Source of the DNA: Fibrobacter succinogenes subsp. succinogenes S85
GTDB lineage: Bacteria; Fibrobacterota; Fibrobacteria; Fibrobacterales; Fibrobacteraceae
Direction: 5' to 3'
Length of the DNA: 32,000 nt
NCBI RefSeq assembly: GCF_000146505.1
Contig: NC_017448.1
Coordinates: 3,120,001-3,152,000 of the forward strand
In this document: in pieces, positions 1,095 to 32,000 of the stretch
Position numbering within the stretch: the first letter of the stretch is position 1
Layout of the letters: each line of letters opens with the position of its first letter
Notes under the pieces: generated by a model
Seen by the model: only the letters and a program-made list of their open reading frames with translations
Told to the model about the DNA's origin: nothing
The model's database searches: none
Made by a program: the position numbers and the translations under genes

Positions 1095-1313
1095 TTCTAA
1101 CTCCTTGAGTTGTTCTTCTGTGAGGTACTTTAAAGCTACATTCGTTATGGAAAATAATCAAGTAGGCCTATTGTTGGGCTTGGGGAGGGCTGATGATTAG
1201 GAAAAAACGATGGAATTTGTGTCTTTGATACAATGTCGAAGGATTTTTCCGGAACAGACCTTTATATCGAGGATGAGGAATAATCTATATTACAAGTAAT
1301 AAAGGAGCCCGTT

Positions 1314-2270
1314 ATGACATATACATTTTTGAAGCTTGCTGAAGAAGTTCTTGAAGAAGCCAAAAAGCGCGAGAACATCCAAGCACTTTCCCATGTGGAA
1401 ATATGGGAAAAGGCTGAAAAATATGGAATTCAAAACAAGTGTAGTTCCTCTGGTAAAACGCCTTGGCAATCCATCTGCGCTCAAATATATGTGGATATGA
1501 AGGATAACGCTAAAACTATTTTTGCAAAAATTGGTACGCGGCCTGTGCGTTTTGCTCTTAAGAAATATGTTGAAAATGGTGTAAAGATTACTGACATAGA
1601 ACAAAAAATAAAACAGCCTAAGACAATATTTTCGGAACGGGATTTACATCCGCTTTTGACGAAGTTTGTTTATTCGAATTCGCATTTTCATTGTTATGCA
1701 AAGACTATTTATCATGAGACTTCAGCCAAACATAAGATTGGGCGAAATCATTGGTTACATCCGGATTTGATGGCCGTCTATTTCCCGTTTGATTCGTATC
1801 AAACAGGAACACTGGATATAATTAAGTCTTTTTATGAGTCAAAAATGAAATTGTTCTCATTTGAGATGAAAAAAGAAATCACTAGCTCGACTCTTCGTGA
1901 GTATTATTTCCAAGCAGTTTCTAATTCTAGTTGGGCTAACGAAGGCTATTTGGTCGCTTTGAAATTTGATCAAGATGATGATTTTCGTGAAGAAATGCAA
2001 CGCCTTAACAATTCTTTCGGCATAGGCTTTATCCAACTCGACGCAATGAATGTGGAACAAAGTAGTGTTCTAATTCCTGCTAAAATCCATGAACAAATTG
2101 ATTGGGATTTTCTTGATCGTCTTATTGAGGAAAATCCTGATGTCAAGAATTTCGTCGACTCCATTAATGGGGATGTTCTGCTTCAAAAGGTAAAGAATAA
2201 GAACGAATATGATGAAATCTTCGATAACTCCAAGATGGAAAAGTGGATTAAGGACAAGGGAATTGAATAG
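1314..2270 (+). CDS. HARE-HTH N-terminal domain fused to a PD-(D/E)xK nuclease-like domain (Mrr/restriction-endonuclease-like)
   Basis: The SD AAAGGAG lies upstream of the ATG. The N-terminus (KTPWQSICAQIYVDMKDN...RPVRFAL) fits the HARE-HTH pattern found in RpoE-delta and restriction enzymes. Downstream are ERDLHPLL, HPDLMAVYF (D151) and FSFEMKK (E184-x-K186), then YYFQAVS, which together give an ordered E...PD...ExK...Q nuclease core. The gene sits in an AT-rich context. Confidence 0.6.
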   Translation: MTYTFLKLAEEVLEEAKKRENIQALSHVEIWEKAEKYGIQNKCSSSGKTPWQSICAQIYVDMKDNAKTIFAKIGTRPVRFALKKYVENGVKITDIEQKIKQPKTIFSERDLHPLLTKFVYSNSHFHCYAKTIYHETSAKHKIGRNHWLHPDLMAVYFPFDSYQTGTLDIIKSFYESKMKLFSFEMKKEITSSTLREYYFQAVSNSSWANEGYLVALKFDQDDDFREEMQRLNNSFGIGFIQLDAMNVEQSSVLIPAKIHEQIDWDFLDRLIEENPDVKNFVDSINGDVLLQKVKNKNEYDEIFDNSKMEKWIKDKGIE

Positions 2271-2318
2271 CGACTATTGTCTGACAAAAGTTAATTAGCT
2301 ATATTTGTTAATAACAAT

Positions 2319-2368
2319 TCCCACCGTGCCTCTTAACAATGCGTACCACGGTGGGACTTCGCATTTTT
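2319..2368 (+). terminator. Putative rho-independent terminator
   Basis: TCCCACCGTG (2319-2328) pairs with CACGGTGGGA (2347-2356) across an 18-nt loop, followed by CTTCGCATTTTT. Confidence 0.4.
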
Positions 2369-2484
2369 AGGCGTTGTCTTTGGTTTTGCGGTCGAAATTT
2401 TCGATTGCAAATTCTCTACCATGCTGGTGGAGTTTTTCGGTATGGTGCGAATGTAAAATTGCTCGGCAAAAATGTACAACCCTC

Positions 2485-2513
2485 TTGACGATAGTTTTCC
2501 GATAATCTATATT
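2485..2513 (+). promoter_or_regulatory. Sigma70-like promoter TTGACG-N17-TATATT
   Basis: TTGACG is at 2485-2490, followed by a 17-nt spacer and TATATT at 2508-2513. The predicted leader contains a hairpin at 2558-2585 (CCCCGC/GCGGGG) that abuts the SD GGAGGAG at 2584-2590. Confidence 0.35.
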
Positions 2514-2596
2514 TGGTGTACGGATGAGCAAATGTGTTGCTCTATAAACAACAAAAGCCCCGCTGTTTTCAGCATGTCTGCGGGGAGGAGTTAAAA

Positions 2597-3154
2597 ATGA
2601 AGAATGATGTGAAGAATGGTGGCGTCGGCATTTGGCTTGATGAAATTGTTCCTTGTCTCAAGGATACCGAAACTGGCGAAATCAAGGAAACGGTTGTATT
2701 TAAAATCGAAAGTCGTTCATTCCTGAAAAAATTCAACGAAAAGAACGGTTGGGGAATCAATTGGATTGAAATTCCCGATAATGTTGAGGTCTTTGCTTTA
2801 GCGCTAAAGGAAAATAACGAAATTCAGGGTTTTATCGGAGTAAAAAATGACAAGAATTCCGTGGCTGCATTTATCCATTGGGCTTGTACTGCTCCTCGTA
2901 ATAATAAGCGATTGTGTGGATCGCAAAAATACATTGGGGTAGGAGGACATCTATTTGCTATTGCTGCTGATAAATCAATTCAGTGGGGATATCAAGGCGC
3001 AATTCACGGCTTTGCCCTTAACAGAGAGCTACTTAATCACTATATTGAAGTATTAGGAGCCATATTTTTAGGGGCTTTGCACGAATACCAATTTTTCGTG
3101 AACGAAAACGCGGCTAAACATCTTTTGGAGACTTACACCTATGAATGGAACTAA
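2597..3154 (+). CDS. GNAT-like acyl-CoA N-acyltransferase fold protein (185 aa)
   Basis: I prefer the ATG at 2597 (SD GGAGGAG 7 nt upstream) to the track's GTG at 2534. The segment IQGFIGVKNDKNSVAAFIHWACTAP...KYIGVGGHLFAIAADKS resembles the GNAT beta4-alpha3 core. The assignment is by eye only. Confidence 0.5.
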   Translation: MKNDVKNGGVGIWLDEIVPCLKDTETGEIKETVVFKIESRSFLKKFNEKNGWGINWIEIPDNVEVFALALKENNEIQGFIGVKNDKNSVAAFIHWACTAPRNNKRLCGSQKYIGVGGHLFAIAADKSIQWGYQGAIHGFALNRELLNHYIEVLGAIFLGALHEYQFFVNENAAKHLLETYTYEWN

Positions 3155-3326
3155 AGGGCCTGTCATTCTGGCGGAATCCATGGAGGCGTATAGGGCCACT
3201 CCTGATCCGTACAAAGATGCTCCTTCAATGCATGTGAACTTGTTGGAGTTGTCTCGTTATGCAGAAAGAGTTGGAAAGCCGATGTGCGAATTGACAAAGG
3301 AAGAAATAGACCAATTCCGGTTGTAA
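3141..3326 (+). CDS. Small hypothetical protein (61 aa) overlapping the GNAT-like gene by 14 nt
   Basis: The ATG lies inside the end of the upstream gene (ATGAATGGAACTAA), which suggests coupling. I recognise no family. Confidence 0.35.
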   Translation: MNGTKGPVILAESMEAYRATPDPYKDAPSMHVNLLELSRYAERVGKPMCELTKEEIDQFRL

Positions 3327-3365
3327 TTTATCTCGTCATCCCTCGTTCTTGATTATATTTATCAC

Positions 3366-4418
3366 ATGGTTATGAATATGTTTGGGAAGATAGTTTTGGC
3401 TGCGGCCATGGTGTCATCTGCTATAGTTGTGCCTGCGTTTGCGGCGGGTAAGGTCGCTTGCGTTGGCAATAGCATCACGTATGGTTACGGGATTGAGTCC
3501 TGGCCGGACCAGACGAGTTATCCGCATCATTTGCAGGGGATGCTTCGCGAAAATGCGCCGAGCGATACGGTCGAGAATTTTGGCGTGAGCGGGCTTACGG
3601 TCCGCAAGGACGATCAGGCTTCGTATTGGAAGGGGTACCGCTTTGCGCCGGCAATTGAATTTGCGGCGGATACGGTTATCATCGAGTTGGGTACGAACGA
3701 TTCGAAATCGTACACGACTTGGAATACTCCGGCGCAGGATGCTGCGGTGGACTCTGCGATTACGGCGGATTTTGAAGCGCTTATTGACACGTTCCAGGTG
3801 AAGTCGAAGCCGCATGTTTTTATTTGCTTGGCTCCTTATGTGAACAACATAGAATGGAATATCCTTGATACGGCTGTCGTAAAGCGCGTGAATCCGGCTA
3901 TTTTGCGGGCTGGGCTTGAAAAGGGTGTGAACGTGATTGACTTGCATTCTCGTTTTAGCGCCCTTGAAAATCCGAGCTGGTATTTGGAAGATATGGTGCA
4001 TCCGTCTGTTGAGGGCGCAAAGCACTTGGCCGAAATTGTGTATGCCCATTTGCAAATGGATACGTTGCATGTAACGCAGGACGGATCAACGCTCAAGGCT
4101 CCGAAGGGCTTCTATGGTTTCCAGTGGTACAAGGATGGGAAACTTCTTGAAGGTGAAACTCTTGAAACGCTTGAGGTTAAGGGTGAGGGCGAATACAAGG
4201 TTTCTGTGAAGGTGGACGAAAAGACGCTTTCGCGGATTGTGACGGCTCCGTTGAAAGTCGAAAAGACGACTGCCTTGAAGCCGGGTGTTCGTGAAATCGC
4301 TCGCGAAAACTCGGTGGGTGTAGCGAACATGGCTAAATCGGCGCGACGTTTTGACGCTCAAGGCCGCGCTCTGAAAGCTCGCGGACCATCGCACCAGAAA
4401 ATCTACACTAAACGCTAG
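3366..4418 (+). CDS. Secreted SGNH/GDSL-family esterase with a basic C-terminal tail
   Basis: It has a signal peptide (MFGKIVLAAAMVSSAIVVPAFA) and SGNH blocks CVGNSITYGYG (I), GVSG (II), GTNDS (III) and DMVHPS (V, DxxH). The C-terminus RRFDAQGRALKARGPSHQKIYTKR resembles the basic terminal domain of Fibrobacter glycanases (from memory). Confidence 0.8.
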   Translation: MVMNMFGKIVLAAAMVSSAIVVPAFAAGKVACVGNSITYGYGIESWPDQTSYPHHLQGMLRENAPSDTVENFGVSGLTVRKDDQASYWKGYRFAPAIEFAADTVIIELGTNDSKSYTTWNTPAQDAAVDSAITADFEALIDTFQVKSKPHVFICLAPYVNNIEWNILDTAVVKRVNPAILRAGLEKGVNVIDLHSRFSALENPSWYLEDMVHPSVEGAKHLAEIVYAHLQMDTLHVTQDGSTLKAPKGFYGFQWYKDGKLLEGETLETLEVKGEGEYKVSVKVDEKTLSRIVTAPLKVEKTTALKPGVREIARENSVGVANMAKSARRFDAQGRALKARGPSHQKIYTKR

Positions 4419-4691: not shown

Positions 4692-5579
4692 ATGAAATCC
4701 AGTGCAGAAAAATTGCAGCCTGAAGAGCGTCTCGGTTCAATCCCTCCGAAGCGCATGTCAGTTTTTGAATTTGATGATTACCGCGCTTATTTGCGGCACT
4801 ATTTTGAGTGTGCGCAAGCCTTGAACCGCCGTTATTCGCTGCGGAGTTTTTCGGACAAGCTGGGATTTTCGTCCAAGGATTTTATTTCGCGTGTGATGAA
4901 GGGCGAAAAGAGCCTCACTCCGGCAAGCATTGCAAAAATTGTCGGTGGCTTGCAATTCGATGAAAGCGAGGCTGCATATTTCGAGGCGATGGTGCTTTTC
5001 TGCCAGGCGTCCAACGGCGATGAGCGTGAAAACTACAAGAAGCGCATGGAAGAAATCACGGCAACTTACCGTTTCACGCAGCAGATGCTTTTGACTCGTG
5101 CGTACCAGTATGAAGTTTATTCGCACTGGTATTATTCCGCGATCCGCTCAATTATCGGGATGATTGGTTTTGATGGCGATTACGATGCTCTCGGGGCGCG
5201 CTTGATGCCGCCGATTTCTGGAGAGCAAGCGCGGCAAGCGGTGGATTTGCTGGAACGCGTCGGGCTCATCAAGAAGGACGCCAAGGGCAACTGGATTTTG
5301 AACAATCCGGCGATTAGCACGGGCGACAAGGTCATCCAGCAGGCTTTTATCAATTACCACAAGGAATTTATTGATCTCGCGAAGGAGTCCATTACCAATG
5401 TTCCTTCGACCGAAAGGAACGTGAGCAGTGTGACTCTCGGCATTTCGGAGGCATCTTACAAGAAAATTGTCAAGTGCATCAATGAGTTCCGCAAAAAAAT
5501 TTCTATGATTGCTAATGAGGACGAGGACGGTGGCCGCGTTTTCCAGATGAATATCCAGATTTTCCCGTTGTCCAAGTGA
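4692..5579 (+). CDS. TIGR02147-like protein (Fibrobacter paralogous family, DUF4423-type)
   Basis: FDDYRAYLRHYFE...RYSLRSFSDKLGFSSKDFISRVMKGEKSLTPASIAKIVGGLQFDESEAAYFEAMVLFCQA matches the N-terminal HTH-like signature of that family as I recall it. Confidence 0.75.
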   Translation: MKSSAEKLQPEERLGSIPPKRMSVFEFDDYRAYLRHYFECAQALNRRYSLRSFSDKLGFSSKDFISRVMKGEKSLTPASIAKIVGGLQFDESEAAYFEAMVLFCQASNGDERENYKKRMEEITATYRFTQQMLLTRAYQYEVYSHWYYSAIRSIIGMIGFDGDYDALGARLMPPISGEQARQAVDLLERVGLIKKDAKGNWILNNPAISTGDKVIQQAFINYHKEFIDLAKESITNVPSTERNVSSVTLGISEASYKKIVKCINEFRKKISMIANEDEDGGRVFQMNIQIFPLSK

Positions 5580-17468: not shown

Positions 17469-18260
17469 TTAATGATAATCAAACAGTTTTCTGGTTTCGT
17501 TCAAGAATTTTATGGAATGAATCTCTTTCAAGAATCCGATGTGATGGCGCAAGTAGGTGAGGAGTGCGTTCTCGGTGAATTCGGGGTGCTCAATGTTGTC
17601 GCCAGTTTGCAATGCCCAAAGCCCATTGAGCGTTTCTAATCGTGCACGCGGATGCTCAACGCCGAGACACGCTTGGCATACGAATCCGCCTGTTTCGGGG
17701 AAAAAGTCTGCGGCTGGTTCTTCGAGTGTGTGACCACAGCGGCTGCAAGTGGTGAGGTCTAGATTGTAGCCCCACATATCGCAAGTGTCCAGGAGCCACT
17801 GCGCAAAAATGCGCGACTTGTCAGGAACACTCGATGTTGACGAGTGCGCGGAACCTTCTGGAGTCGGCGAATCTTGTGGTGAATCGGAATCGAATTCGCT
17901 GATAGCTTGCTCTAGGCGTTCAAATTCTTCTTGCAGGGGGACGCCTTGTGGCGCGTAACGCAGAATCATTTCGGTCATGACCTGCGCTTTCGCTGTGCTG
18001 AGTAAATCGTTGCGCAAGTTCTTCCGCCAGTCCAAAAGCGTTGCTTCCTTGATGAACTGCAAATCGGTATTCGGATTCTGGCGAAAAACGACTTCGCTTA
18101 ACGCAAGCGGATCAAGGGCTCCTCGGAACGGAGATTCCTTTTTCTTTCCGCCCTTCACGATAAACGAGACAATCCCGCTTTCTTCCGTAAGCGCCTTGAC
18201 GATAAAGCTAGAATCGCTGTACGGAAAGCGGTGCAGAACAATGGCACGAGTTTTTATCAT
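17469..18260 (-). CDS. recO: DNA repair protein RecO
   Basis: The N-terminal OB fold begins MIKTRAIVLHRFPYSDSSFIVKALTEESG, and there is a CxxC...CxxC zinc module (CSRCGH...CQAC). Confidence 0.85.
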   Translation of the reverse strand: MIKTRAIVLHRFPYSDSSFIVKALTEESGIVSFIVKGGKKKESPFRGALDPLALSEVVFRQNPNTDLQFIKEATLLDWRKNLRNDLLSTAKAQVMTEMILRYAPQGVPLQEEFERLEQAISEFDSDSPQDSPTPEGSAHSSTSSVPDKSRIFAQWLLDTCDMWGYNLDLTTCSRCGHTLEEPAADFFPETGGFVCQACLGVEHPRARLETLNGLWALQTGDNIEHPEFTENALLTYLRHHIGFLKEIHSIKFLNETRKLFDYH

Positions 18261-18356
18261 AGACGAGAGACGAAAGACGAGAGACGAAAGAGGCGTAAGC
18301 CCATTATAAATCTCTAGTCACTCGTCTGTAGCGAGTTTACGAGCGTTCTTTCGTCT
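18261..18356. repeat. Intergenic heptamer/14-mer tandem repeat with downstream inverted copies
   Basis: AGACGAGAGACGAA occurs twice in tandem at 18261-18288, made of the 7-mers AGACGAG and AGACGAA. The inverted copies are CTCGTCT at 18321-18327 and TTTCGTCT at 18349-18356. The element fills the whole gap between the HIT stop and the recO start. Confidence 0.45.
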
Positions 18357-18711
18357 ATGCCTTCGGGAACGGAGGCCAGCCCATTTCCTGTCCGCCAACG
18401 ACGTGCAGGTGGATGTGGAACACTGTCTGACCGGCGTCAGCCTTGCAGTTGAACACAAAACGTGCTCCGCCTTCTTCGAGGCCGAGGTCCTTGGCGATGA
18501 GCTGTGCGCGGTAAAGCATCTTACCCACGAGTTCGCAATCTTCCGGCTTCATGTCCATGATGGTTGCAATGTGGCGCTTCGGCACGACCAAAAAGTGTAC
18601 CGGAGCCTGCGGGGCGATATCGTAGAAGGCGAATACATCGTCATCTTCATAAATCTTCTTGGACGGGATTTCACCCTTAATAATCTTGCAGAAAAGGCAA
18701 TTTTCACTCAT
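18355..18711 (-). CDS. HIT-family (histidine triad) nucleotide-binding protein
   Basis: CLFCKIIKGEIPSKKIYEDDDVFAFYDIAPQAPVHFLVVPKRHI plus the histidine triad HIHLHVVGG. Confidence 0.85.
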   Translation of the reverse strand: MSENCLFCKIIKGEIPSKKIYEDDDVFAFYDIAPQAPVHFLVVPKRHIATIMDMKPEDCELVGKMLYRAQLIAKDLGLEEGGARFVFNCKADAGQTVFHIHLHVVGGQEMGWPPFPKA

Positions 18712-18800
18712 AATTGAGGTGTCTCCATTTTTTATTTCAAGATAGTAAAATGTGTGCGGACGGGAATTGCGAGTGATTTTTTTCGTATTTTTAAACCGTT

Positions 18801-22052: not shown

Positions 22053-22316
22053 TTAAAACCAGTAGCGCTTCATCTTTTTCATGAACGCTGCGTCTACTGG
22101 CCATCCGGAAGCGTCTGGGATGACAGAGTCAATCGCGCAGTAAGGGCATAAAGCTGTCAGGTCTTCCCTGTCAATGCAGAAGTCTTCTACTTCTGATGCG
22201 GGGAATGTTTTGCAGCAAAAGAAGCAGCCGCACATCTGGGATCTTTTTACGAGCCCTCTGTTCTGGAAGGAAGCGGCGTGTGCCTTTTTGATAATCTCAG
22301 GCATGTTTCTAGTCAT
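22053..22316 (-). CDS. Small Cys-rich protein (87 aa) with a CxC...CC...CPxC pattern
   Basis: I prefer the ATG at 22316 (SD AGAGGA 7 nt upstream) to the track's TTG at 22364. MCGCFFCCKTF...TALCPYCAIDSVIP suggests a zinc-binding module. I cannot name the family with confidence. Confidence 0.5.
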   Translation of the reverse strand: MTRNMPEIIKKAHAASFQNRGLVKRSQMCGCFFCCKTFPASEVEDFCIDREDLTALCPYCAIDSVIPDASGWPVDAAFMKKMKRYWF

Positions 22317-22356
22317 ATAAGAATCCTCTATAAAAGTTTTCCCATGTTGGGAGTTT

Positions 22357-22611
22357 TTAGGCAATGCTGTTTTGAATCTTGCCGGATTGGATAAGAAATT
22401 CTCTTACGTAGCGATAGTAGTCTCTACAGAAGTTTGAAAAAGCTCTGGAATCGCTTGGTGTGCATGGAATAGAGAATATCTTATTTGCACCTTCTTCGAT
22501 GTGTCGCAAGATGACGTGCTTGCCGTGACGTGCGATTTCCCATTTTTTGGACTTTAAGATGTTTAGGACGAAATCGCGGATGTCTTTGTTGTTGGAAATG
22601 TAAGGCTGCAT
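22357..22611 (-). CDS. Small protein (84 aa), possibly HicA-like
   Basis: The SD AGGAGA lies 6 nt upstream. KWEIARHGKHVILRHIEEGANKIFSIPCTPSDSRA loosely follows the HicA pattern G-x-H...hxh...hP (from memory). The functional call is weak. Confidence 0.4.
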   Translation of the reverse strand: MQPYISNNKDIRDFVLNILKSKKWEIARHGKHVILRHIEEGANKIFSIPCTPSDSRAFSNFCRDYYRYVREFLIQSGKIQNSIA

Positions 22612-22799: not shown

Positions 22800-24590
22800 T
22801 TATTTCAAATTACTTTTAAAAGGCTCCCATTTTCCATGAAGTTTCATATCTTCGTCTTTGAAGAACCATTTTATGGTATTCCCGTTTCTGCTCCAACGAC
22901 TGTGACAGTTCCGGCACTCGAATAAGAAGTTATTTTCGGTAGAGCCCTTCGCCCTAGTAGCGTCAGCTTTACAGCAGGGACATTTTTGGATGAGGCTTAT
23001 TAGGGCGTTCCCGGTCTTGAGAATTTCTATGTCTTCATCGCGGTTTTTGCGATAGGTACTCAGGTCCCTTTTCTGGATTCTGTCAGTATGCTCTCTTTTA
23101 TCAACCTGCTTCTTGAATTCATTGTCGTCGTAACGATCGAGCAGGTATTTACCGTCTAGCATATTGGGGACAAGTTCCTTTATAAATCTATTCTGGGGCA
23201 CTTTGAACGGATACTGGCACATGAGCATTGCCCAAATCCACTGGAAAATAATCCTTTGGATTAGGAGTTTTGGGAAGATGGATTGCGGTGCTATGCCCAG
23301 TACCATATAGGCTTCGTTGTTTTTGAACATATCATGCAATATGGTAAAGTTGTCTTCGTCTTCGCTCAGGTAGGGGTTACATTGTGGATATACAAGGACC
23401 GATACATCGCCTGTATAGGGGTTAGACTCATTAAGGACGTTGTCGATATAGCAGCTTGTGGGTTTTGAGGTAACGAAAACAAAGCGCAGCTTTTTGCCGT
23501 TTGCTTCTAGTTCAAGGCTGTTGTAGGGTGTTTCTCTATATTCCGGCTTGATATAGTTCCAGCAATCCCAATCCATGTTTGTGGTTCTGAAATCTTCGAT
23601 GCACCTCTTGACGAATTCTTTTTCGTTATGCAGCAGCAGGACCTGTTCTTCTTTTTTTTCTGCCTTAGAAAGAGTTTTGATACGTGCACGCTTGACCTCT
23701 TTCTGTATCTTGGGTAAGTACCGGTAATGCTGGTTGTTCATCAGGACGTTTGTCATGATGTCGTGATTGATGTCCACTTCAACGTTGGGAAAGGTCTTAA
23801 GGTTACTGAACAGTAGCGTATTCCAAAAGGAGGATATGACGCGCTGCAGGTATTTTAGGAAATCGATAGTCCGCTTCAGCAGTTCTCTATTTTCCTTGAC
23901 TTTCTCGATGCTGTATTCCTTGAGTAGGGAACTCAGTTCCGATTCCATAGATAAGTAATCTACATAGCTGACTTCTTGGTAATACAACTCTATTTCATTA
24001 TAGGCGTTGTCGATATTCTTGAGTCTCTGCAATCGCTGGTTTATTAATGAAATTAGTATTTTGCAGAGTGTGAACATCAAGCGGTTTTCGTACGTTTCCC
24101 ATTTGTCGTCCCTGACTAAAGAAAGCAGACGCTGTGGGTGGACTCCGACAAACGAACGGTTTCTCCAGTCCTCGGAATGCCCTGCCAGATATTCAAGGGC
24201 GCGAGATGCGAATTTTTTGACACGGCTAGTTGGCTGCTTTATTTCCTCTTCCTTCAGGTCAAGAATTGGTCTGGCTACGGCCTCCTTTAGGTGAGTGAGA
24301 GGGTCGTTTCGCTTAATTTGGTCAATGTCTTCTTGTAGGAACGTTTCTAGCTGGTTGCGATCAAGGTCGTCGGGATTGTTGCACAGCGAAAAGAACGAAT
24401 CCTTGTCTTCGTCAAGCAGCCGAAATGCGGCAAGGATATCGTTGGTGATAGGCTCGGATTCCTTGACTTCGATGTCGTCAAAGTGGTAGATGACATTCCC
24501 CTTTTGCGCCTCCTCTCTGCTTAGGGCATAAAGGCCTCCACAATCGGGGTTGTCAATCTTGACATCCTTTTGCAAGAAGATATCGAACAT
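22800..24590 (-). CDS. McrC-like partner protein with a C-terminal 4-Cys zinc ribbon (CnuC-like candidate)
   Basis: 596 aa. Its start overlaps the upstream stop (TAATG). ETYENRLMFTLCKIL (aa 165-179) resembles the E. coli McrC segment DTLANRIIKSTLAIL as I recall it. MLDGKYLL (aa 477-484) resembles the McrC IVDAKYY (D/E)xK strand. CPCC-x18-CRNC lies at 22905-22982. Confidence 0.6.
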   Translation of the reverse strand: MFDIFLQKDVKIDNPDCGGLYALSREEAQKGNVIYHFDDIEVKESEPITNDILAAFRLLDEDKDSFFSLCNNPDDLDRNQLETFLQEDIDQIKRNDPLTHLKEAVARPILDLKEEEIKQPTSRVKKFASRALEYLAGHSEDWRNRSFVGVHPQRLLSLVRDDKWETYENRLMFTLCKILISLINQRLQRLKNIDNAYNEIELYYQEVSYVDYLSMESELSSLLKEYSIEKVKENRELLKRTIDFLKYLQRVISSFWNTLLFSNLKTFPNVEVDINHDIMTNVLMNNQHYRYLPKIQKEVKRARIKTLSKAEKKEEQVLLLHNEKEFVKRCIEDFRTTNMDWDCWNYIKPEYRETPYNSLELEANGKKLRFVFVTSKPTSCYIDNVLNESNPYTGDVSVLVYPQCNPYLSEDEDNFTILHDMFKNNEAYMVLGIAPQSIFPKLLIQRIIFQWIWAMLMCQYPFKVPQNRFIKELVPNMLDGKYLLDRYDDNEFKKQVDKREHTDRIQKRDLSTYRKNRDEDIEILKTGNALISLIQKCPCCKADATRAKGSTENNFLFECRNCHSRWSRNGNTIKWFFKDEDMKLHGKWEPFKSNLK

Positions 24591-27037
24591 TAGGCGCCTC
24601 GTTTCTTTGCTGCGATGTCCTGGTCAATGAGCCTGATGGTTGCCGAGTTGTCGTCTAGTTTTATATTTTTTTGAATTTCTTCTTTAAGTTTTACTAGAGA
24701 ATCTTCCTGCACGCCAAATAGACCCGTGATTTTGCCTTTTCGTACAATCTTTGTGGCAAGGAGATGGTCTAGAGCGAGTTCTTTGGACCCTCCTGCGGCA
24801 CAGACCACAGGAACGAAATTCCTGATTTGCCTTTCGAGACGGTTTCCGAAAGATACATCAAATTCCGACTTTAGTACATCCTTGAGGGAATGCATTTTTT
24901 CAGTGACCCAGGCAGCTTGCTGTTCTCCTTCATCTGATTCCTGTGCTTCGACAAATGCGTTTCTCAAATCCTCGGCGGACCAGTGGGCCGCACCTTGTCT
25001 TATCTTTTGGTAGGACGGTTTTTGAGTATTGCGCTCCATCACCATGACGTGGGCGCGGTCGTACGTCTTGTCGGCGAATTCCATGGTGGTTTCGTCATGG
25101 TTTGCGGTGCCGATAAACCACACGTTGGGAGGAACAATGATTTTTTCATTTTGGAGGTATTTGGGCCAACGGTCTGATTCCATAGTTTCTTTGGGCATTC
25201 CCGAAAGCAGCTCAACTGTTAGGGGATCAAATATGGAGCTATTTGCTTGCTCCATTGCTGAAATGAAGTCTGCAAAATATTGTTCGGGATGTGACAAGTT
25301 CATTTCGTCGAGAATTAGGAAAAATAGGCGGTTTTTGAACTGAGGCGTAGATGCGGTATAGAGCCCCTTGGAGAAGGGTTTTTCGTAGAACTTCTTTTCG
25401 AAGGCATTGTAGTAACCCAGCAAATCCTGGTTGTCGCGCCATCCGGCCTGAACAGGGATTATGCAGCTACAGGAACCGTTATCCTTCTCTGACTTGCTAC
25501 CATCGGAATTATCTCCAACGATAGAAGCGAACGCTTGTGCTAATTTGGTCTTGCCTGTTCCGCTAATACCCTGTAGTAAAATGAGGCGGCTCATGGCTAG
25601 GCCACCAACAAACAGTTGCAGAGTTTCGGGTGTATAGAAAAGGTGGGGCTGATATTGCGTCAACTGGTAGCCGACTGCATTCACGAATTCTTTAAGGTCA
25701 CCGGAATTTTGGGTGAAACTGATGTATTCGCGGTTGCATCTGCTATCGATGTTCTTGAATTCAGCAAAAATGTCCTTATTCTGGTCTTTTGCGGTAAGCT
25801 CATCGAGCTCTTTACGCAATTGGTTTTGTGCTTCTTTGAGAGCCGCGTTGTGCGTTTCCAAAGTTTTATTTAAAGCAATTAAACCTTCTGTGTCTACAAT
25901 TTTTCTTCGATAATCCATTACCTGTTTAGAGAGCGCATTCTTTTCGGCGATGGCTGATTCGCATTGGTCTTTGAAACTCTGCAAAGCATCTTCCATCTCC
26001 TGCTGGTGTTCCGGGCTCCAGGCAGAATTAAGTTCCAACTTGAGAGTTGCATTTTTATTGCGAAGATTGTTTATCAACTCCTTGGCCTCTTCGGCACTCA
26101 TCCCATCGAGCTGTGACTTGATATCCTTGTAGCTCTTTAATTGCTTTTGCAGGTTCTTATTTTCTTCATTCAAGTCTTTAATTTGATTTTCGAAGGATGC
26201 CTTGCTTTGTGCGAGTCTGTTATCATACTCAAGTTGAATCTCTTCCCTGATTTCATCAAATGCCTTTTTCCTGTTTTCATATTCCGTTTTCTCAAGAATG
26301 CATTTTTCTTGCTCTTTGCTTAAAGAGGCGAGTTTGTTTTTGTAATCTTCAGATTGCTTTTGCAGCGAGTTTCTTGTTGATTCCAGATCTTTATTGAGTT
26401 TTTCGGTAATCTCATTTTTCCATTTGGTCTCGTTTGCGATAAAGCCTGCATCGGCTTCGGCTTCTCTTTGCTTAATCTGAGCTTTAAGCCCTTCTAGGCG
26501 TTCGTCTTCTTTTTTGTTTGCGTCTTCTTTTATCTGAGCCTTGCCTTCTCTTTCGGTAACATCGTCCTCGCGTTTTTTTGCTTCACCTTCTCTTTCGTTA
26601 AGTTTGTTTTCGCGTTTATTTAGTCCATCTTCTCTGTCTTTAAGCTCGCTTTCCTTGTCTTCTTGCTCTTTAGATGTTTGTCCTAAATCTGCAATTTTGG
26701 TATCATAACCTTTTTTGGCTTTGTCGCAATCTTCCTTGGCAATCTTGTACAAGCCAATTACATCGTTGAGCTCATTTTGCAGAGCCTTAAGAGTTTCTTT
26801 TTCTTCGTCGGAAAGCTTGTTCTCTGAAGGAATTAGATTTTTGATTTTATCCAATATAGATTCTTTGGGCATGTTGATTTCTGGCGAAGCGTCGTCAACA
26901 TTAGATATGGCGGGAGCACTTTCAACAGAGGCCTTTATCGGGGTGAAAATGCTGTTCATGTCGTCTATGCTTATGGGGGCATGACGCTGAGGTGTAGAAG
27001 GTTGGTTTTTGTTCTTGTTTTTATTTTTCTTGCTCAT
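24590..27037 (-). CDS. Coiled-coil McrB-family AAA+ GTPase (CnuB-like candidate)
   Basis: 815 aa. It has a K/N-rich N-terminus, and aa ~75-430 are E/K/Q/L-rich with almost no Pro, predicting a coiled coil. Walker A is GISGTGKT (25547-25570), Walker B is LILDEMN (25298-25318), and VWFIGTANHDETT matches the McrB GTMNTAD-type specificity motif. Confidence 0.8.
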   Translation of the reverse strand: MSKKNKNKNKNQPSTPQRHAPISIDDMNSIFTPIKASVESAPAISNVDDASPEINMPKESILDKIKNLIPSENKLSDEEKETLKALQNELNDVIGLYKIAKEDCDKAKKGYDTKIADLGQTSKEQEDKESELKDREDGLNKRENKLNEREGEAKKREDDVTEREGKAQIKEDANKKEDERLEGLKAQIKQREAEADAGFIANETKWKNEITEKLNKDLESTRNSLQKQSEDYKNKLASLSKEQEKCILEKTEYENRKKAFDEIREEIQLEYDNRLAQSKASFENQIKDLNEENKNLQKQLKSYKDIKSQLDGMSAEEAKELINNLRNKNATLKLELNSAWSPEHQQEMEDALQSFKDQCESAIAEKNALSKQVMDYRRKIVDTEGLIALNKTLETHNAALKEAQNQLRKELDELTAKDQNKDIFAEFKNIDSRCNREYISFTQNSGDLKEFVNAVGYQLTQYQPHLFYTPETLQLFVGGLAMSRLILLQGISGTGKTKLAQAFASIVGDNSDGSKSEKDNGSCSCIIPVQAGWRDNQDLLGYYNAFEKKFYEKPFSKGLYTASTPQFKNRLFFLILDEMNLSHPEQYFADFISAMEQANSSIFDPLTVELLSGMPKETMESDRWPKYLQNEKIIVPPNVWFIGTANHDETTMEFADKTYDRAHVMVMERNTQKPSYQKIRQGAAHWSAEDLRNAFVEAQESDEGEQQAAWVTEKMHSLKDVLKSEFDVSFGNRLERQIRNFVPVVCAAGGSKELALDHLLATKIVRKGKITGLFGVQEDSLVKLKEEIQKNIKLDDNSATIRLIDQDIAAKKRGA

Positions 27038-28482
27038 TTGTATGCCTCGTGTAAAATATCTAACTGTTTTTCAATTCTGTTGTAAATATCAATGTAGGGG
27101 TATGGAATAGGTTTTCTGTTTGTGTTAAAATGACCGTAGGTGTTGCGCGTGTCCACCAGTTCAAGAATGAATTTAAGGTCGTCGCTCAATGACCCGTTTT
27201 TTTCCAGTCTTGCCATAAACCAAGCTAGTGGGTTTTGGGGATGATAAAGGTAAAAGATAAGATGCCTAATGAGTAGTGACTTAAGAGAAGGCTTCCTTCG
27301 AGTCATACTCCCCCATACATCATCGTTTGTCAATTTTTTCTTGATGTCTTCGTCCAGTTCTAGATTGCGCATCTTTAGGCCGCCTTCCAAGTAGTAATGG
27401 CGATCTAAATCTCTTTTGAGAGCAACCTTTTTGAGCTCATCGTTAAAGGGCGTGTTTTTTGTTCTAAGGATGCTTTCGTACATGTTTTGCATTCTAGTAA
27501 GGAATGCATCGCCTAGATCAAGCGAGTTGTCTGTATCGTCGGTAAGAAGGTCTTTTAAAACAAAGAATCTGCAAATTTCAATAATAATGTCTTCTTCAAA
27601 ATGTGGGTATCTGCCTTGAATACGATCTTGAAGCGTAATGGGAATCTCTATTGATTTAATTCCTAAAAAAGCTCCCATTTTTTCATTTTGTTCAAGGGCT
27701 GTATCTAGTTCGTTTTTGAGGAACTCCATTGGAATTTTGGACTGTTCTTCTAGCATGTCAATGCATTGAAAGTCTTCGCCTTCAGAAATTTTTTTGACCT
27801 TGACAAGCAGAAAATTGCATATTTCAGGTTCTTGGTTCCGCTTCTCAATGGAAATTATTTTATCGGGTTGCTCAATGTAGCTCGCCTTGATGTCATTGTA
27901 GTCGGACAAGGCAATATCGCAGTCGATTTGCTGGTATTCCTTCCACATATTGTAAATGTCTTCTTCCGAAATGTCTGTTGAGTTTTCTCTAACTTTGTTG
28001 GTGCGTGGGTACACAATAAACGGCTTGATGTTGCAGGGCATACCCTTGGACCCGCCGGCAATAGTGATTCCTTTTTCGTTTTGTTGGTAATCAATGGACG
28101 TGAGTTCCCCATTCATTAGGGGGTGTGGAATTAATTGTCCTGTCAACATGGATTGTAACACTACGATTCGACTTTTTTTGATTGTGGTCTCCGTGCAGGA
28201 GACTCCTTCTGGTATGTGCCACTTGTCAATCCCTTTTGTGACTTTCTGCTTGAGGTCGTGTTCAAGAATATAGCGAATTAGGGCCTCATCTAGATTGGTC
28301 AATTCATGGAGCTCTTGGACAGTCTTGTCTCCGGTCAGGAGAAGGTTTATGATTAGATCCGAAAAAAAGTTTTCGGGGATATTTGCTTCTGCTACCAGAA
28401 TATCCCATACAATGACAGGCAAGGTGAAATAATCACCCTTGGAGAGTTCACTTGAATTGCAAAATAAATTAGCAATTTCCAT
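27034..28482 (-). CDS. Protein with a C-terminal HEPN-type Rx4H motif (putative RNase)
   Basis: I prefer the ATG at 28482 (SD GAGGA, 1 nt after the helicase stop) to the track's TTG at 28503. LELVDTRNTYGHFN (R..H at 27130-27147) lies in a helical C-terminal region, and the N-terminus looks wHTH-like (TVQELHELTNLDEALIRYIL). The stop overlaps the next start (ATGA). Confidence 0.6.
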   Translation of the reverse strand: MEIANLFCNSSELSKGDYFTLPVIVWDILVAEANIPENFFSDLIINLLLTGDKTVQELHELTNLDEALIRYILEHDLKQKVTKGIDKWHIPEGVSCTETTIKKSRIVVLQSMLTGQLIPHPLMNGELTSIDYQQNEKGITIAGGSKGMPCNIKPFIVYPRTNKVRENSTDISEEDIYNMWKEYQQIDCDIALSDYNDIKASYIEQPDKIISIEKRNQEPEICNFLLVKVKKISEGEDFQCIDMLEEQSKIPMEFLKNELDTALEQNEKMGAFLGIKSIEIPITLQDRIQGRYPHFEEDIIIEICRFFVLKDLLTDDTDNSLDLGDAFLTRMQNMYESILRTKNTPFNDELKKVALKRDLDRHYYLEGGLKMRNLELDEDIKKKLTNDDVWGSMTRRKPSLKSLLIRHLIFYLYHPQNPLAWFMARLEKNGSLSDDLKFILELVDTRNTYGHFNTNRKPIPYPYIDIYNRIEKQLDILHEAYK

Positions 28483-28483
28483 A

Positions 28484-31400
28484 TTATTTTTCCTCGTCTG
28501 CAAGTTTAATAAATTCTTTTAAAGCGGGAACTTCCTCTTGTGCTTTTTCTGTTTCATACATTTTTCTATTTCCTACAATCACAAGGAGTTTCTTTTGACG
28601 AGAGAAAGCGACGTTTAGACGGTTTTCTGATTTGAGAAAGCCGAAGTTGTTCCTGTCGTTGCTGCGAACAACAGAGAAGAATACGATATCAAATTGCCGC
28701 CCTTGGAACGCGTCGATTGATCCGATTTCTAGATGCTTGTTGTCAATTTTTTTCTTGAGTTCTGCATCTGACTTAGCAATTTTATCAATGAGTCGTGTTT
28801 GTGCACTGTATGAGGCGATAACACCGATAGTTTCGTCAGTTTCCTTGATAATTTCCTTTATGCGCTTAATAATTAGCTCGGCTTCAGCCTCGTTCGTTTT
28901 GCTTATTTTCCCAGATTCCTTGCTATCGACATTTTCCCAAACCGCACACTTGCAATCTCCATTTTTCTTAGTGTATCTTGAAACATGATGAATGCAGTCA
29001 TTGGGATTTTTGCCGGTTTGAATATGTGTCTCGTCTCCGTAAAAATTTCGACTTACAAAGTCGCTTAATTTTTGCGGCATACGATATTGAGTATCGAGAG
29101 TTACCGTGCGTACAATGCCATCATTTCGTTCTGTTTTTAAATAATCCCATAAAGATTCGAATAGAGACTTTTCCATAAAGCCCTTCAATTCTTCGAACCG
29201 TTCCCTAGAATCATTGCTGCATTCCATTTGCTCTAGGATATCTTGATCAACAAGTTGGGGGAGTTGCTTGTGGTCGCCAACTAGTATAACTTTTTTTCGG
29301 GCTAAGGTGATGGGTATGAATAGGTCAAGAGGATTTGCTCGAGCAGCTTCATCGATGATGACGTAATCAAACTCAAAGTTTTTCTTACCAAGAAGCCTTA
29401 CAAAAGATTCACTTTTTGATTGCTGTACTGTTGCCGCATAGGTCATGGCGTAACGGAGCATTGCGTTTCTGATGGATTTGAATCCGACATTTTCCTTATA
29501 GCTGTTTAGAACAATCAGTTTTTGTAGGTCGGTTTGCCTGATGCGTTCTCTGATGTTGGGCTCAATGGTCGTGTCGATATAATCCTTTAGAATTGTGAAC
29601 AGCTGATTGTCAAACGAATCTGTTGGATTGGGAACCATTTGCTCAATGCATTTGTTTCTGAGTTCTTCAACCCAGTCAAGGTCTTCTTGGCTAGGTGTCG
29701 AATTCGCTAGTTTCTTTAGCTGATCGTACCCTTTTTCCAAGGCGTAACAATTCAAGGAATCCTTGCGCAAATCGTAGTATTCCAACACATGCTCAATCAT
29801 TCTCTTGCCGTCGTCATTGAATCCTGTGCTGGTTGTTCTTAATCCCATTAGGCATTGGTAGAATTTATTGTTTATTTGCTTGACTTGGAATTTCTTTTTG
29901 AATTCCTTAAGAGTATCCACTTCTGACGGAGAAAGGATGCTGTTTGTGACGGCAAGATTGATGATTTCTTGTAGTAGGTTTCGTATTTCGTAAGAAGAGC
30001 TTGCAGCGCTTAGTGCATTAAGGCTTATTTGCAATTTTTCGTATTCGATGTATTGCGTGTCGGACTGTAACTTATTTATCTGTTCATCAATTTTTTTTGC
30101 GGTATCTTCTTGCCATTTCTGGAGTCCTCTGAAGATTTGTTCCTTGTCCTTTTGTTCCCCATAAAAGCGAAATACGGGAAGTCCCCAAATTGAGCTTCCG
30201 TCAGCCACATTATCAACAGCTACGTGTTGAAAACTTGTCAATAATATGCTAGGCATTTTTTCGGGATGCTTGGGGTCTATCGATTGTAGATATTTTTGTA
30301 ATGCGTTGATAACGCTTGTCTTTCCTGTTCCGGGAGGTCCTTGGATGAGGGCTATGTCTGGTGTGTTCAGACAAACCTTTAGTGCCCTTTTTTGTGCTTC
30401 ATTGGGTCTTCTGTTACCGAATGCCGCTTCAATTTTTAGATCGTTCAGCCTTTTGGGGACGGCTGCGGAGCCGAAGGAGGGGAGCGTTGTTTTATTTAAA
30501 ATGTCTGTAATAGATGCAATAGGAATGTTGCGTGTTCGGATGTTTTCTAGTGCTGCTGTTCTGCGTTTGGATGCTATAGACCATGGTTTAAAATCTATGG
30601 CGAATCCCTCAAGTTCTAGTTTTTCGCTATTGTCATATTTAGGTTTTCTTTCGCCCCATTTCCAGGAAACTGTTCTTGTTTTCTCGTCAATCCGTTCGTC
30701 GCAAATATTGTAACTCTTACGTTTCGAGAAAACGTAGATGGAATAAGAATTCTTTTGATTGGCGTTTAGCTGATCGTATATGTTCTTGAAATTTTCTATT
30801 TCTTCGGATTTGTTTTGAAGTGTTGCGCTGCAGTTTTCTCCTTTGGCAGTTATCTTTTCAATGCGAAGAATGCCAGACTGGATTTTATAATCTTCCAGCA
30901 TCTGCGCGTCAACCTGATTATACTTTTCCCAAAGGTTTATGATGGAGTTTGGGTCTGCGGCTTGTTTAGCTAATTGTGCATTCAAAATGGGATCGCTTAC
31001 GATGGCTTCCTGTTCTGATACGAATCGAATGTGCGCAATCCCTTTTTGTACATTCAATTTTTTTTGAGGAGACTTTTTTAGATTGCTGACAAAGAGATAC
31101 TCCTTGCCGTCTACCTTCTTACTTTCGATATTTGCAACATAATTGCATCCGAGCCATCCTCCTTCCAAGTTTGAGGTATTGCTCAGAATTCTAAAGAATA
31201 AGTACGAATTTTCAGTGGTTTGGAAAAGAAACTCTTTTTTGAACCATTCTAGAGCCTGTTCTGTTTCTTTAAAACCATATTTCTTAGTGACTTCTATGAG
31301 CCTGTAGGTTGGAATGACGATATTGCATGTCTGTTCGGTGTTTCCTATAATGGTCGGTCCGCCAAAATCCCACTTGTTTAGGGTCACCTCGTATTTTTTA

Positions 31401-31630
31401 TCTGCTTGTTTTACGGAATCAACAATGTAGAGTGACTCCTGATTGTATGGAAGTGAATTTTGTGGCCAGAATATCCTTTCTGGATGATTGTAGTTTTTGA
31501 AATATCCGCTTGGGGTGAATTCCAAAACATCGTGTTTGGCGATTTCGAATTTCCCGTCATTGTCAAATATGGCGTCTATGACTTGTGCCGAAGAATTGCA
31601 TGCAATGATATTTAGTTGCTCGTTATTCAT
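28484..31630 (-). CDS. SF1B Upf1/DNA2-like helicase (AAA_11/AAA_12 type) with a roughly 420-aa uncharacterised N-terminal region (CnuH-like candidate)
   Basis: 1048 aa. Motif I is GPPGTGKT (30317-30340), followed by II VIIDEAARA, III VILVGDHKQLPQ, IV LDTQYRMPQ, V SIDAFQGRQFDIVFFSVVRSN and VI RLNVAFSRQKKLLVIVG. An insertion of about 320 aa lies between motifs I and II. Confidence 0.85.
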   Translation of the reverse strand: MNNEQLNIIACNSSAQVIDAIFDNDGKFEIAKHDVLEFTPSGYFKNYNHPERIFWPQNSLPYNQESLYIVDSVKQADKKYEVTLNKWDFGGPTIIGNTEQTCNIVIPTYRLIEVTKKYGFKETEQALEWFKKEFLFQTTENSYLFFRILSNTSNLEGGWLGCNYVANIESKKVDGKEYLFVSNLKKSPQKKLNVQKGIAHIRFVSEQEAIVSDPILNAQLAKQAADPNSIINLWEKYNQVDAQMLEDYKIQSGILRIEKITAKGENCSATLQNKSEEIENFKNIYDQLNANQKNSYSIYVFSKRKSYNICDERIDEKTRTVSWKWGERKPKYDNSEKLELEGFAIDFKPWSIASKRRTAALENIRTRNIPIASITDILNKTTLPSFGSAAVPKRLNDLKIEAAFGNRRPNEAQKRALKVCLNTPDIALIQGPPGTGKTSVINALQKYLQSIDPKHPEKMPSILLTSFQHVAVDNVADGSSIWGLPVFRFYGEQKDKEQIFRGLQKWQEDTAKKIDEQINKLQSDTQYIEYEKLQISLNALSAASSSYEIRNLLQEIINLAVTNSILSPSEVDTLKEFKKKFQVKQINNKFYQCLMGLRTTSTGFNDDGKRMIEHVLEYYDLRKDSLNCYALEKGYDQLKKLANSTPSQEDLDWVEELRNKCIEQMVPNPTDSFDNQLFTILKDYIDTTIEPNIRERIRQTDLQKLIVLNSYKENVGFKSIRNAMLRYAMTYAATVQQSKSESFVRLLGKKNFEFDYVIIDEAARANPLDLFIPITLARKKVILVGDHKQLPQLVDQDILEQMECSNDSRERFEELKGFMEKSLFESLWDYLKTERNDGIVRTVTLDTQYRMPQKLSDFVSRNFYGDETHIQTGKNPNDCIHHVSRYTKKNGDCKCAVWENVDSKESGKISKTNEAEAELIIKRIKEIIKETDETIGVIASYSAQTRLIDKIAKSDAELKKKIDNKHLEIGSIDAFQGRQFDIVFFSVVRSNDRNNFGFLKSENRLNVAFSRQKKLLVIVGNRKMYETEKAQEEVPALKEFIKLADEEK

Positions 31631-32000
31631 TTTTCACCCCAATATTTGAACAGGATGACGCTCCTGAATTTCAAGGAATCGTTTTCTTCGGAATCATCAT
31701 GTATAATTTTTGTTCGTGTGTATTCGGGGAAAAGGATTTGGTACTGTTTGCCTTCCTTGACGTCGATAAGGAGGGAAATCCCCTTTTTCAGGGTGCAGCT
31801 CTTTGTGTTTTTTTCTTTGGGAATGTTTAATGTTACCTTCAGTTCCTTCTGATCGGTCAGTAGTATGCTCAGTTGCTGCTTGGATACGTTGAATGATGCT
31901 TCGATGTTTGCCGATTTGGTTTCTGCTATGGGAATGTTCATTAGGGTAGATGTATCCTCTAGCAGGTACGCGGGATGGCTGAAAACTGTGTCTTGAATTT
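31627..32000 (-). CDS. Beta-rich hypothetical ORF, possibly truncated at its 5-prime end by the window edge
   Basis: The frame stays open from the ATG at 31941 to position 32000 (...IQDTVFSHPAYLLEDTSTL-MNIP...), so the true start may lie outside the window. The stop overlaps the helicase ATG (ATGA at 31627-31630). Confidence 0.5.
   Translation of the reverse strand, partial: IQDTVFSHPAYLLEDTSTLMNIPIAETKSANIEASFNVSKQQLSILLTDQKELKVTLNIPKEKNTKSCTLKKGISLLIDVKEGKQYQILFPEYTRTKIIHDDSEENDSLKFRSVILFKYWGEK

Follow-up and report, generated by a model that had tools for sequence, protein, structure and literature searches.

CnuE of Fibrobacter succinogenes S85, a probable HEPN-type effector subunit of a Type II CoCoNuT defence cassette

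The window analysed here consists of 32,000 nucleotides (nt) of Fibrobacter succinogenes subsp. succinogenes S85 (contig NC_017448.1, positions 3,120,001 to 3,152,000). A run of five genes, all on the minus strand, occupies it from about 22 kb to its 32 kb end. The gene under study, cnuE, lies in the middle of this run, between a helicase gene and a GTPase gene. With a probability of about 0.8, it encodes the effector subunit of a CoCoNuT (coiled-coil nuclease tandem) of Type II, a defence system derived from McrBC. In the direction of transcription, the genes are:

31627..32000, minus strand: 3′ end of a TerY-P Ser/Thr kinase gene, 123 codons, cut by the window edge (by-eye alignment with the C-terminus of the Pkinase protein of a related contig, L003)
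28484..31630, minus strand: cnuH, UPF1-like superfamily 1 (SF1) helicase, 1048 amino acids (aa) (Pfam, NCBIfam and PADLOC profile matches)
27034..28482, minus strand: cnuE, the gene under study, 482 aa; winged helix-turn-helix (wHTH), conserved middle module and one domain of probable HEPN type
24590..27037, minus strand: cnuB, 815 aa, putative N-terminal coiled coil at about residues 60–420 and McrB-like AAA+ GTPase (BLASTP to a published CnuB, motifs, PADLOC)
22800..24590, minus strand: cnuC, 596-aa McrC-like protein, DUF2357 region around YENR167 and C-terminal zinc ribbon CPCC537...CRNC559 (orthologue comparison, motifs)

The cnuE product, translated from the open reading frame (ORF) 27034–28482, has 482 aa and the N-terminus MEIANLFCNS. 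The ATG at 28482, with GAGG upstream, is taken as the real start because this Met is shared by all homologues; the TTG at 28503, given as the start by the ORF lister, was rejected, as the homologues begin at the Met of the 28482 ATG. The junction of cnuH and cnuE consists of a TAA stop, one base and ATG, and that of cnuE and cnuB is an ATGA overlap; both read as the original prediction, made from the sequence of the window, had described them. The kinase gene and cnuH also overlap in ATGA, and cnuB and cnuC in TAATG. Since the junctions overlap or are 1 nt apart, the five genes form one coupled series, in which translational coupling links cnuE both to cnuH upstream and to cnuB–cnuC downstream. 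The GC content of the run is 38–47%, mostly near 40%, and that of the remaining window, which carries housekeeping genes such as recD2, nadA, panB and recO, is about 50%; the cnuE cassette sits on a low-GC island.

The system was identified from the genes that surround cnuE. The Type II CoCoNuT of Bell, Sahakyan, Makarova, Wolf and Koonin (eLife 2024; PMC11090510) comprises a TerY-P triad, CnuH, CnuE, CnuB and CnuC, and the locus matches it gene for gene, beginning with the 3′ end of the TerY-P kinase gene. Relatives of the locus have a seven-gene order: VWA, PP2C, kinase, helicase, CnuE, P-loop protein and DUF2357 protein. The helicase–CnuE–GTPase order is the same in all of them, and the VWA–PP2C–kinase genes lie directly upstream in the related contigs L003, L004, L006, L007 and L008 and in four plasmids; the window holds the 3′ end of the kinase gene only. 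The cassette with its VWA/PP2C/kinase triad is conserved down to a CnuE identity of only about 20% and in at least four phyla, including plasmids of Polaromonas, Rhodoferax, Deinococcus and Pseudanabaena. The TerY-P triad, most of which lies outside the window, is likely an additional regulator; it is frequent in Type II CoCoNuTs and is not regarded as part of their core (PMC11090510). The relatives also carry genes for an RtcR-like sigma-54 activator and a DUF4258 (BrnT-like) protein, features published for Type II surroundings. A Type III-A CoCoNuT, in which CnuE has a second HEPN domain with RxH (PMC11090510), was considered and rejected: there is no second HEPN domain or RxH, and CnuC, at 596 aa, leaves no space for an Hsp70-like unit, the presence of which would point to Type III-A. 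The protein under study is very likely the CnuE orthologue of a Type II CoCoNuT.

The kinase fragment aligns by eye with the C-terminus of a 484-aa Pkinase protein at the same position of L003, and the L003 kinase has a CxxC...CxxC zinc ribbon. CnuH has the Walker A motif GPPGTGKT at residues 431–438 (30317–30340) and matches the Pfam profiles AAA_12 (2e-43) and AAA_11 (9.4e-30), the NCBIfam IGHMBP2-family helicase (5e-50) and PADLOC MkoA (3.5e-87). The 257-position AAA_11 profile is stretched over residues 410–793, which indicates a large insertion after Walker A. CnuH also has about 400 aa of extra N-terminal sequence, for which Pfam and NCBIfam scans returned no family match. According to the CoCoNuT authors, CnuH may hold an RNase-toxin-like (RelE-like, RTL) domain, and an SmpB-like OB fold has been described as well (PMC11090510). 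Neither the SmpB-like and RelE-like domains of CnuH nor the coiled coil published for CnuE between the wHTH and HEPN domains was confirmed at this locus.

CnuB has the Walker A motif GISGTGKT at residues 490–497 (25547–25570) and the Walker B motif LILDEMN from residue 574. The CoCoNuT branch among the McrB GTPases is defined by a shortened signature, NxD instead of NxxD, with E or D as the usual next residue; CnuB has it as N646-H-D648-E at 25094–25102. The published Type I-A CnuB TBC54486.1 matches CnuB in BLASTP with E = 5e-23 from Walker A to Walker B and 2e-8 in the NxD block, where GTAN646-H-D648-E aligns with AVN-M-D-E. The region of about 60–420 is low-complexity, charged and heptad-like, with weak SMC, JetC and Seryl_tRNA_N matches only. 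CnuB further matches PADLOC PDC-M26A (2.1e-38) and is 45% identical to the AAA ATPases of identical plasmid cassettes; in a single-sequence search against the PDB, McrB appeared at E of about 0.5 only. CnuC is 50% identical to its orthologue in the related contig L001. The orthologues in L001, L006 and L007 match DUF2357 just under the cut-off, with E = 2e-4 to 7e-4 (2.2e-4 in L001), and those in L001 and L006 also match a Lar-type zinc ribbon; RefSeq labels the syntenic plasmid genes in the cnuC position ‘DUF2357 domain-containing protein’. Direct BLASTP of CnuC against a fragment of a Type I-A CnuC gave no significant match, and library scans gave no nuclease family match in CnuC. The putative coiled coil and the NxD signature of CnuB, and the DUF2357 region and two-Cys-pair zinc ribbon of CnuC, with the TerY-P triad upstream, are features that the cassette shares with the published Type II CoCoNuT (PMC11090510).

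Mokosh type I, which consists of MkoA and the PLD nuclease MkoB, was also considered. It resembles the present locus in combining a UPF1-like SF1 helicase, to which CnuH is close, with a separate nuclease; it was rejected, as no PLD or MkoB match was found in any neighbouring gene, and it differs further in that the partner of CnuH is apparently HEPN-type and that McrBC-like genes and a TerY-P triad are added. PADLOC labels CnuH as Mokosh MkoA and CnuB as candidate PDC-M26A, so that automated defence annotation would probably call the locus Mokosh or an unnamed candidate, not CoCoNuT. PDC-M26 and CoCoNuT may be one and the same system; the literature search yielded no paper that mentions this PADLOC candidate.

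A comparison tested by experiment is Obs (obsA–obsG) of Pseudomonas aeruginosa PMM16, a Type II CoCoNuT of seven genes that guards against PP7 and LeviOr01, both RNA phages, and the DNA phage MPK7 (bioRxiv 10.64898/2026.04.06.716636). Protection by the whole cluster and transposon insertions in obsC and obsG (the kinase gene and cnuC) were reported, and the HEPN gene was not dissected (bioRxiv 10.64898/2026.04.06.716636). Like the relatives of the present locus, Obs is a seven-gene cluster that ends in cnuC, and its authors call it strongly homologous to Type II CoCoNuTs; it belongs to a host of a different phylum, and the likeness drawn here is one of layout, not of sequence. These data bear on the suggestion that the cassette targets DNA, in a Mokosh-like or classical McrBC-like manner, with CnuE as a DNA-binding specificity subunit acting through its winged HTH. 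The MkoA match of the helicase, the McrBC descent of CnuB and CnuC, the usual DNA binding of wHTH domains and the protection by the P. aeruginosa system against one DNA phage would fit such a role. The same system, however, gives protection from RNA phages, which pass through no DNA stage; the Mokosh architecture lacks its PLD partner here, family-library scans detected no DNA nuclease domain in any of the five genes, and the nuclease of Type II CnuC is reported to be inactivated (PMC11090510). The chance that CnuE serves a DNA-targeting cassette in this way appears very small.

The CnuE family is small and divergent: 19 clusters at 90% were found among 5.8 billion proteins, with 14 representatives at 50%. 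An HMMER scan of 1.84 billion representatives gave 14 matches only, and word-indexed profile searches with two family alignments (A3 and A2) added nothing useful. Members occur mainly in Fibrobacter-like metagenomic contigs. A GTDB scan returned a single species-level genome, the Fibrobacter sp. metagenome-assembled genome JAZRWJ010000044.1, with a protein 44% identical to CnuE and the same seven genes. Four plasmid cassettes (VWA–PP2C–kinase–helicase–X–AAA–DUF2357) were picked in this analysis and are not named in PMC11090510; the family profile matches their CnuE-position proteins nearly end to end, with 125 bits in Rhodoferax, 110 in Pseudanabaena, 85 in Polaromonas and 44 in Deinococcus. 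In BLASTP, CnuE and the Polaromonas protein are 30% identical (E = 1e-9) in the wHTH region, that is, the N-terminal 100 aa, and a weak collinear segment pairs LELVDTRNTYGH with LELVDKRNKGSH. The likeness to the published Type II CnuE (PMC11090510) covers the position (between cnuH and cnuB, the frames overlapping or abutting), a length of about 480–510 aa, and the combination of an N-terminal winged HTH with one HEPN-type domain at the C-terminus that has a single RxxxxH; a difference is that the HEPN region of the proteobacterial protein can barely be aligned pairwise.

In CnuE, a winged HTH at the N-terminus is followed by a conserved middle module and then by an all-helical domain at the C-terminus. 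The full-length AlphaFold2 (AF2) model was built on 13 sequences, and the C-terminal domain was modelled separately on a more diverse alignment. The features within the gene are:

28213..28368, minus strand: residues 39–90, winged helix-turn-helix (AF2, Foldseek, BLASTP to the Polaromonas protein)
27652..28203, minus strand: residues 94–277, conserved middle module (cross-phylum conservation; AF2 predicted local distance difference test score, pLDDT, <50)
27037..27651, minus strand: residues 278–482, all-helical C-terminal domain, probably HEPN-type (AF2 model; sub-threshold HEPN profile matches)
27475..27477, minus strand: E336, third invariant polar residue of the C-terminal domain (19/19), within a long helix
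27130..27147, minus strand: R446-N-T-Y-G-H451, R-N-x3-H motif with the putative catalytic Arg and His (residues 446–451; conserved in homologues)

Residues 41–90 are modelled with pLDDT 73–86 and have a helix–helix–helix–strand topology. Foldseek gives local matches to the MarR/ArsR structures 5jlu, 8qkf and 5yhx (AdcR, SmtB and ZitR) with a probability of 0.98 and a root-mean-square deviation of 1.6–2.4 Å over 52–59 columns, but with E >1. The middle module contains residues G115, P119, P154 and D242, which are invariant or nearly so across phyla, and the strongly conserved motifs LQSxxTGxLIPxP, GSKGxP and CxD; its pLDDT is below 50 at residues 108–277, and no family match was found in Pfam and NCBIfam. 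This module may be the CnuH-docking part of an ‘elongated wHTH’. The C-terminal domain alone (residues 275–482) is modelled with 11 helices, pLDDT 87.3 and a predicted template modelling score (pTM) of 0.86, and residues 278–482 are also helical and confident in the full-length model. At its C-terminal end, the penultimate helix carries R446 and N447; H451 lies in the next, less confident loop, with one further helix after it. The winged HTH that the original prediction saw at the N-terminus is thereby upheld, its helix-rich C-terminal region is borne out, and the middle region, where it recognised no motif, has likewise stayed without a family.

The original prediction rested on an Rx4H motif near the C-terminus, and RNTYGH is indeed present at the position given for it. 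The match as such carries little weight. CnuE contains four Rx4-6H matches (at R70, R287, R357 and R446), and composition-preserving shuffles of the protein yield 1.23 on average, with a probability of 0.72 of at least one; an Rx4-6H match as stand-alone evidence for HEPN was therefore rejected as being at chance level. The narrower RNxxxH has a probability of 0.024 in shuffled CnuE. RNTYGH is regarded as real because it is conserved, not because of the match alone: the matches at R70, R287 and R357 are not conserved, and that at R446 is. Thirteen homologues, with identities down to 41%, all have R446, N447, Y449 and H451; among 15 sequences reaching down to about 20% identity, H451 is kept in all and R446 and N447 in 14. 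Adding the four orthologues on plasmids of Betaproteobacteria, Cyanobacteriota and Deinococcota brings the set to 19 sequences from at least four phyla, in which E336 (19/19), R446 (17/19) and H451 (19/19) are the sole near-invariant polar residues of the C-terminal domain. In the alignment of that domain (A4), the only invariant columns are E62, R172 and H177 (domain numbering). R-N-x3-4-H or R-D-x3-H occurs in 17 of the 19 sequences; Arg is followed by N, in Pseudanabaena by D, with a spacer of 4–6 residues. CnuE has a single conserved R-N-x3-H, and the homologue alignments hold no conserved RxH beyond residues 446–451. Conservation of R and H among homologues had been set beforehand as a test of the HEPN claim, and the claim passed it strongly. 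E336 is no more than a candidate active-site residue.

In two members of the set, P0031 and the protein encoded at 6115–7578 of L011 (Deinococcus sp. AJ005 plasmid p96k), the motif Arg is missing, and His and E336 are kept. These copies may be inactivated or differently wired, inside otherwise intact cassettes.

The HEPN form is said to have been given by Anantharaman and colleagues in 2013 as R-[NDH]-x3-5-H. In the canonical HEPN arrangement, R is followed by N or D, the spacer has 4–6 residues and the His lies about 30 residues before the C-terminus. Profile searches with CnuE point in the same direction at a low level. HEPN_Apea of Pfam matches the CnuE of the window with E = 0.022 and 15.6 bits (cut-off 24.4) and is found with six of the 15 full-length sequences and with five of the 13 C-terminal domains taken alone, at E = 0.011–0.043 and with at best 16.4 bits against that cut-off; it is the sole family matched by more than one member. 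Single members gave sub-threshold matches to HEPN_Swt1 (E = 0.0038), HEPN_RiboL-PSP and HEPN_MAE_28990. The family consensus aligns with positions 25–122 of the 136-position HEPN_Apea profile and also reaches Ribonuc_2-5A and Abi_C in Pfam, both below threshold; against PADLOC, consensus sequences match CARF_HEPN, Csx1 (0.005) and Cas13-ApeA, again all sub-threshold. The pattern of these sequence matches appears coherent, and none is significant alone. The best single Pfam match of one C-terminal domain consensus (A3) is BREX_BrxC_helical (E = 0.0012, 19.6 bits with the cut-off at 27, positions 91–183), which is probably helical-composition noise.

The domain may be compared with ApeA and minimal HEPN RNases (HEPN_Apea PF18739; Csm6/Csx1; RnlA; Cas13), with which CnuE shares R-N-x3-H near the C-terminus of an all-helical domain, and among which HEPN_Apea is the most frequent Pfam match, always sub-threshold. 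Unlike these, CnuE does not stand alone, has no CARF sensor and is an obligate part of a cassette with a helicase and an McrBC-like GTPase.

Several points weigh against CnuE as the HEPN effector of a CoCoNuT. Every HEPN model stays below its curated threshold, leaving no significant HEPN profile match. A Foldseek search of PDB and BFVD with the confident C-terminal model returned nothing with E <0.5, and the top 50 contained no HEPN structure; with the whole-protein AF2 model against the PDB, the wHTH alone matched and the C-terminus gave nothing. Profile searches of PDB sequences with three alignments (A1, A3 and A4) found no HEPN protein, the weak matches to cGAS and the halogenase PltM being spurious. 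The Arg of the motif is absent in 2 of the 19 homologues (P0031 and Deinococcus). Orthology to CnuE rests on synteny with identical cassettes, not on direct comparison with the reference AVE71179.1, and no nuclease assay or HEPN mutant for any CnuE was found in the literature searched. In the mechanism outlined below, the docking, dimerisation and gating steps are themselves inferred.

The structural blanks would fit a domain that is not HEPN at all but an unrelated helical bundle, with the R...H pair in phosphate or nucleotide binding or in a protein interface. Foldseek found no HEPN match despite a pLDDT of 87, all HEPN profile matches are sub-threshold, and the consensus also weakly matches non-HEPN families such as BREX_BrxC_helical. 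Yet the sub-threshold matches fall on several HEPN families in two independent libraries, with HEPN_Apea alone matched by many members, and R-N/D, the 4–6 spacer and a His about 30 residues from the C-terminus form the canonical HEPN arrangement. Foldseek is, moreover, weak on divergent all-helical domains. The CoCoNuT authors, too, assign a HEPN domain to CnuE (PMC11090510). An unrelated bundle is very improbable. Judged by the motif, the way it is conserved, the class of fold and the published work, the C-terminal domain of CnuE is likely HEPN-type, an assignment short of proof at fold level. For the original prediction, which had proposed the Foldseek comparison, the outcome is divided: the all-helical model is confident, and no HEPN structure was matched.

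A HEPN origin does not by itself imply RNA cutting. Non-catalytic HEPN domains exist, and the domain could be an RNA- or nucleotide-binding or scaffold module, the effector lying elsewhere, for example in the RelE-like domain reported in CnuH. Catalytic evidence was found for no CnuE in the literature searched, the Arg is lost in two homologues, and CnuH possibly has an RNase-toxin-like domain (PMC11090510). Opposed to this, the only invariant polar residues over at least four phyla are the canonical R and H and an acidic residue, which is typical of a retained active site. The PD-(D/E)xK nuclease of Type II CnuC is inactivated, so that HEPN is the sole recognisable nuclease of the system (PMC11090510). 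A non-cutting HEPN domain is an unlikely alternative, if less so than the unrelated bundle, and CnuE is, on balance, probably the RNA-cleaving effector in vivo. The original prediction of a separate HEPN-type effector between helicase and GTPase agrees with the published Type II CnuE, defined by a wHTH, a coiled coil and one HEPN domain with RxxxxH, for which RNA cutting is predicted (PMC11090510); it had not recognised the system as one already named and published (Type II CoCoNuT, 2024).

HEPN domains are metal-independent RNases that leave 2′,3′-cyclic phosphate ends, and two domains normally form one active site (Pillon et al. 2021, as cited in PMC11090510). As each CnuE has a single HEPN domain, dimerisation of CnuE would be needed for cleavage. 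In the mechanism proposed for the CoCoNuT effector, CnuE would dock on CnuH through the wHTH and the middle module; AF2 multimer models by the CoCoNuT authors suggest that the CnuE wHTH contacts the CnuH insertion (PMC11090510). CnuH would translocate on RNA and deliver it to the HEPN site, dimerisation of CnuE would plausibly be imposed by the oligomeric CnuB–CnuC GTPase assembly, and the TerY-P kinase/phosphatase switch would gate the system. Infection would then be halted by the cutting of viral RNA or, in an abortive response, of host translation RNAs. A more specific and rather tentative version makes CnuE a translation-directed RNase, which CnuH would load on ribosome-associated RNA (tmRNA, tRNA or phage mRNA) and which would be activated by CnuB–CnuC pairing two single-HEPN CnuE subunits under TerY-P licensing. 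In a less likely variant, the C-terminal domain would have a helical RNase fold other than HEPN, which would account for the lack of Foldseek matches.

Other elements were observed in the window. Just after cnuC, at the 3′ edge of the low-GC island, an 84-aa HicA-like toxin ORF (22357–22611, minus strand; PADLOC HicA-like 2.9e-12, Pfam HicA_toxin 0.0022) is overlapped by 8 nt by a 103-aa ORF without a family match (22053–22364, minus strand); the two ORFs (22053–22611) are probably a HicAB-type toxin–antitoxin pair. A second low-GC patch at 1000–3200 (37–40% GC against about 50%) contains a gene for a 318-aa protein with an N-terminal HARE-HTH domain (1314–2270, plus strand; E = 1.2e-10) and a 206-aa ORF without matches (2534–3154); the patch may be another small acquired element. 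A DUF4423 protein gene lies at 4692–5579 on the plus strand; this family is expanded in Fibrobacter.

The surroundings of two related loci are also of note. In L003, the long contig most closely related to the locus, a gene for a 475-aa sigma-54-activator AAA protein (2332–3759, minus strand) is divergent from the VWA gene that starts the cassette; at a greater distance, that side also holds genes of the NYN/OST-HTH RNase-like and RhuM kinds. The counterpart of this region falls past the end of the window. L003 also has a Fib_succ_major domain gene at 18119–18727. In L009 (Polaromonas naphthalenivorans pPNAP01, 126975–154183), a complete Type II cassette, with RtcR-like sigma-54 activator and DUF4258 genes before it, is carried on a conjugative IncP plasmid. 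Its neighbour, two unannotated genes away, is a Zorya system (ZorA, OmpA-family ZorB, EH-signature protein and SNF2 protein), and an integrase gene is nearby; L009 represents a defence island within a mobile plasmid.

The CoCoNuT branch of McrBC systems is widespread and was named only recently; its predicted target of restriction is RNA, not DNA. In the literature searched, one preprint alone shows protection by a Type II cassette, including that against RNA phages. CnuE of F. succinogenes is a further example of a published, computationally defined component; knowledge of this kind of system is unchanged by it, and the locus will not surprise a specialist. It adds a divergent example from the Fibrobacter lineage, and the useful result at residue level is that comparison across phyla narrows the candidate catalytic residues to E336, R446 and H451, a triad that offers a target for mutagenesis. 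If CnuE were a translation-directed RNase, the Fibrobacter family, with this triad and its strongly conserved middle module, would be a compact model of an McrBC motor re-purposed from DNA to RNA restriction.

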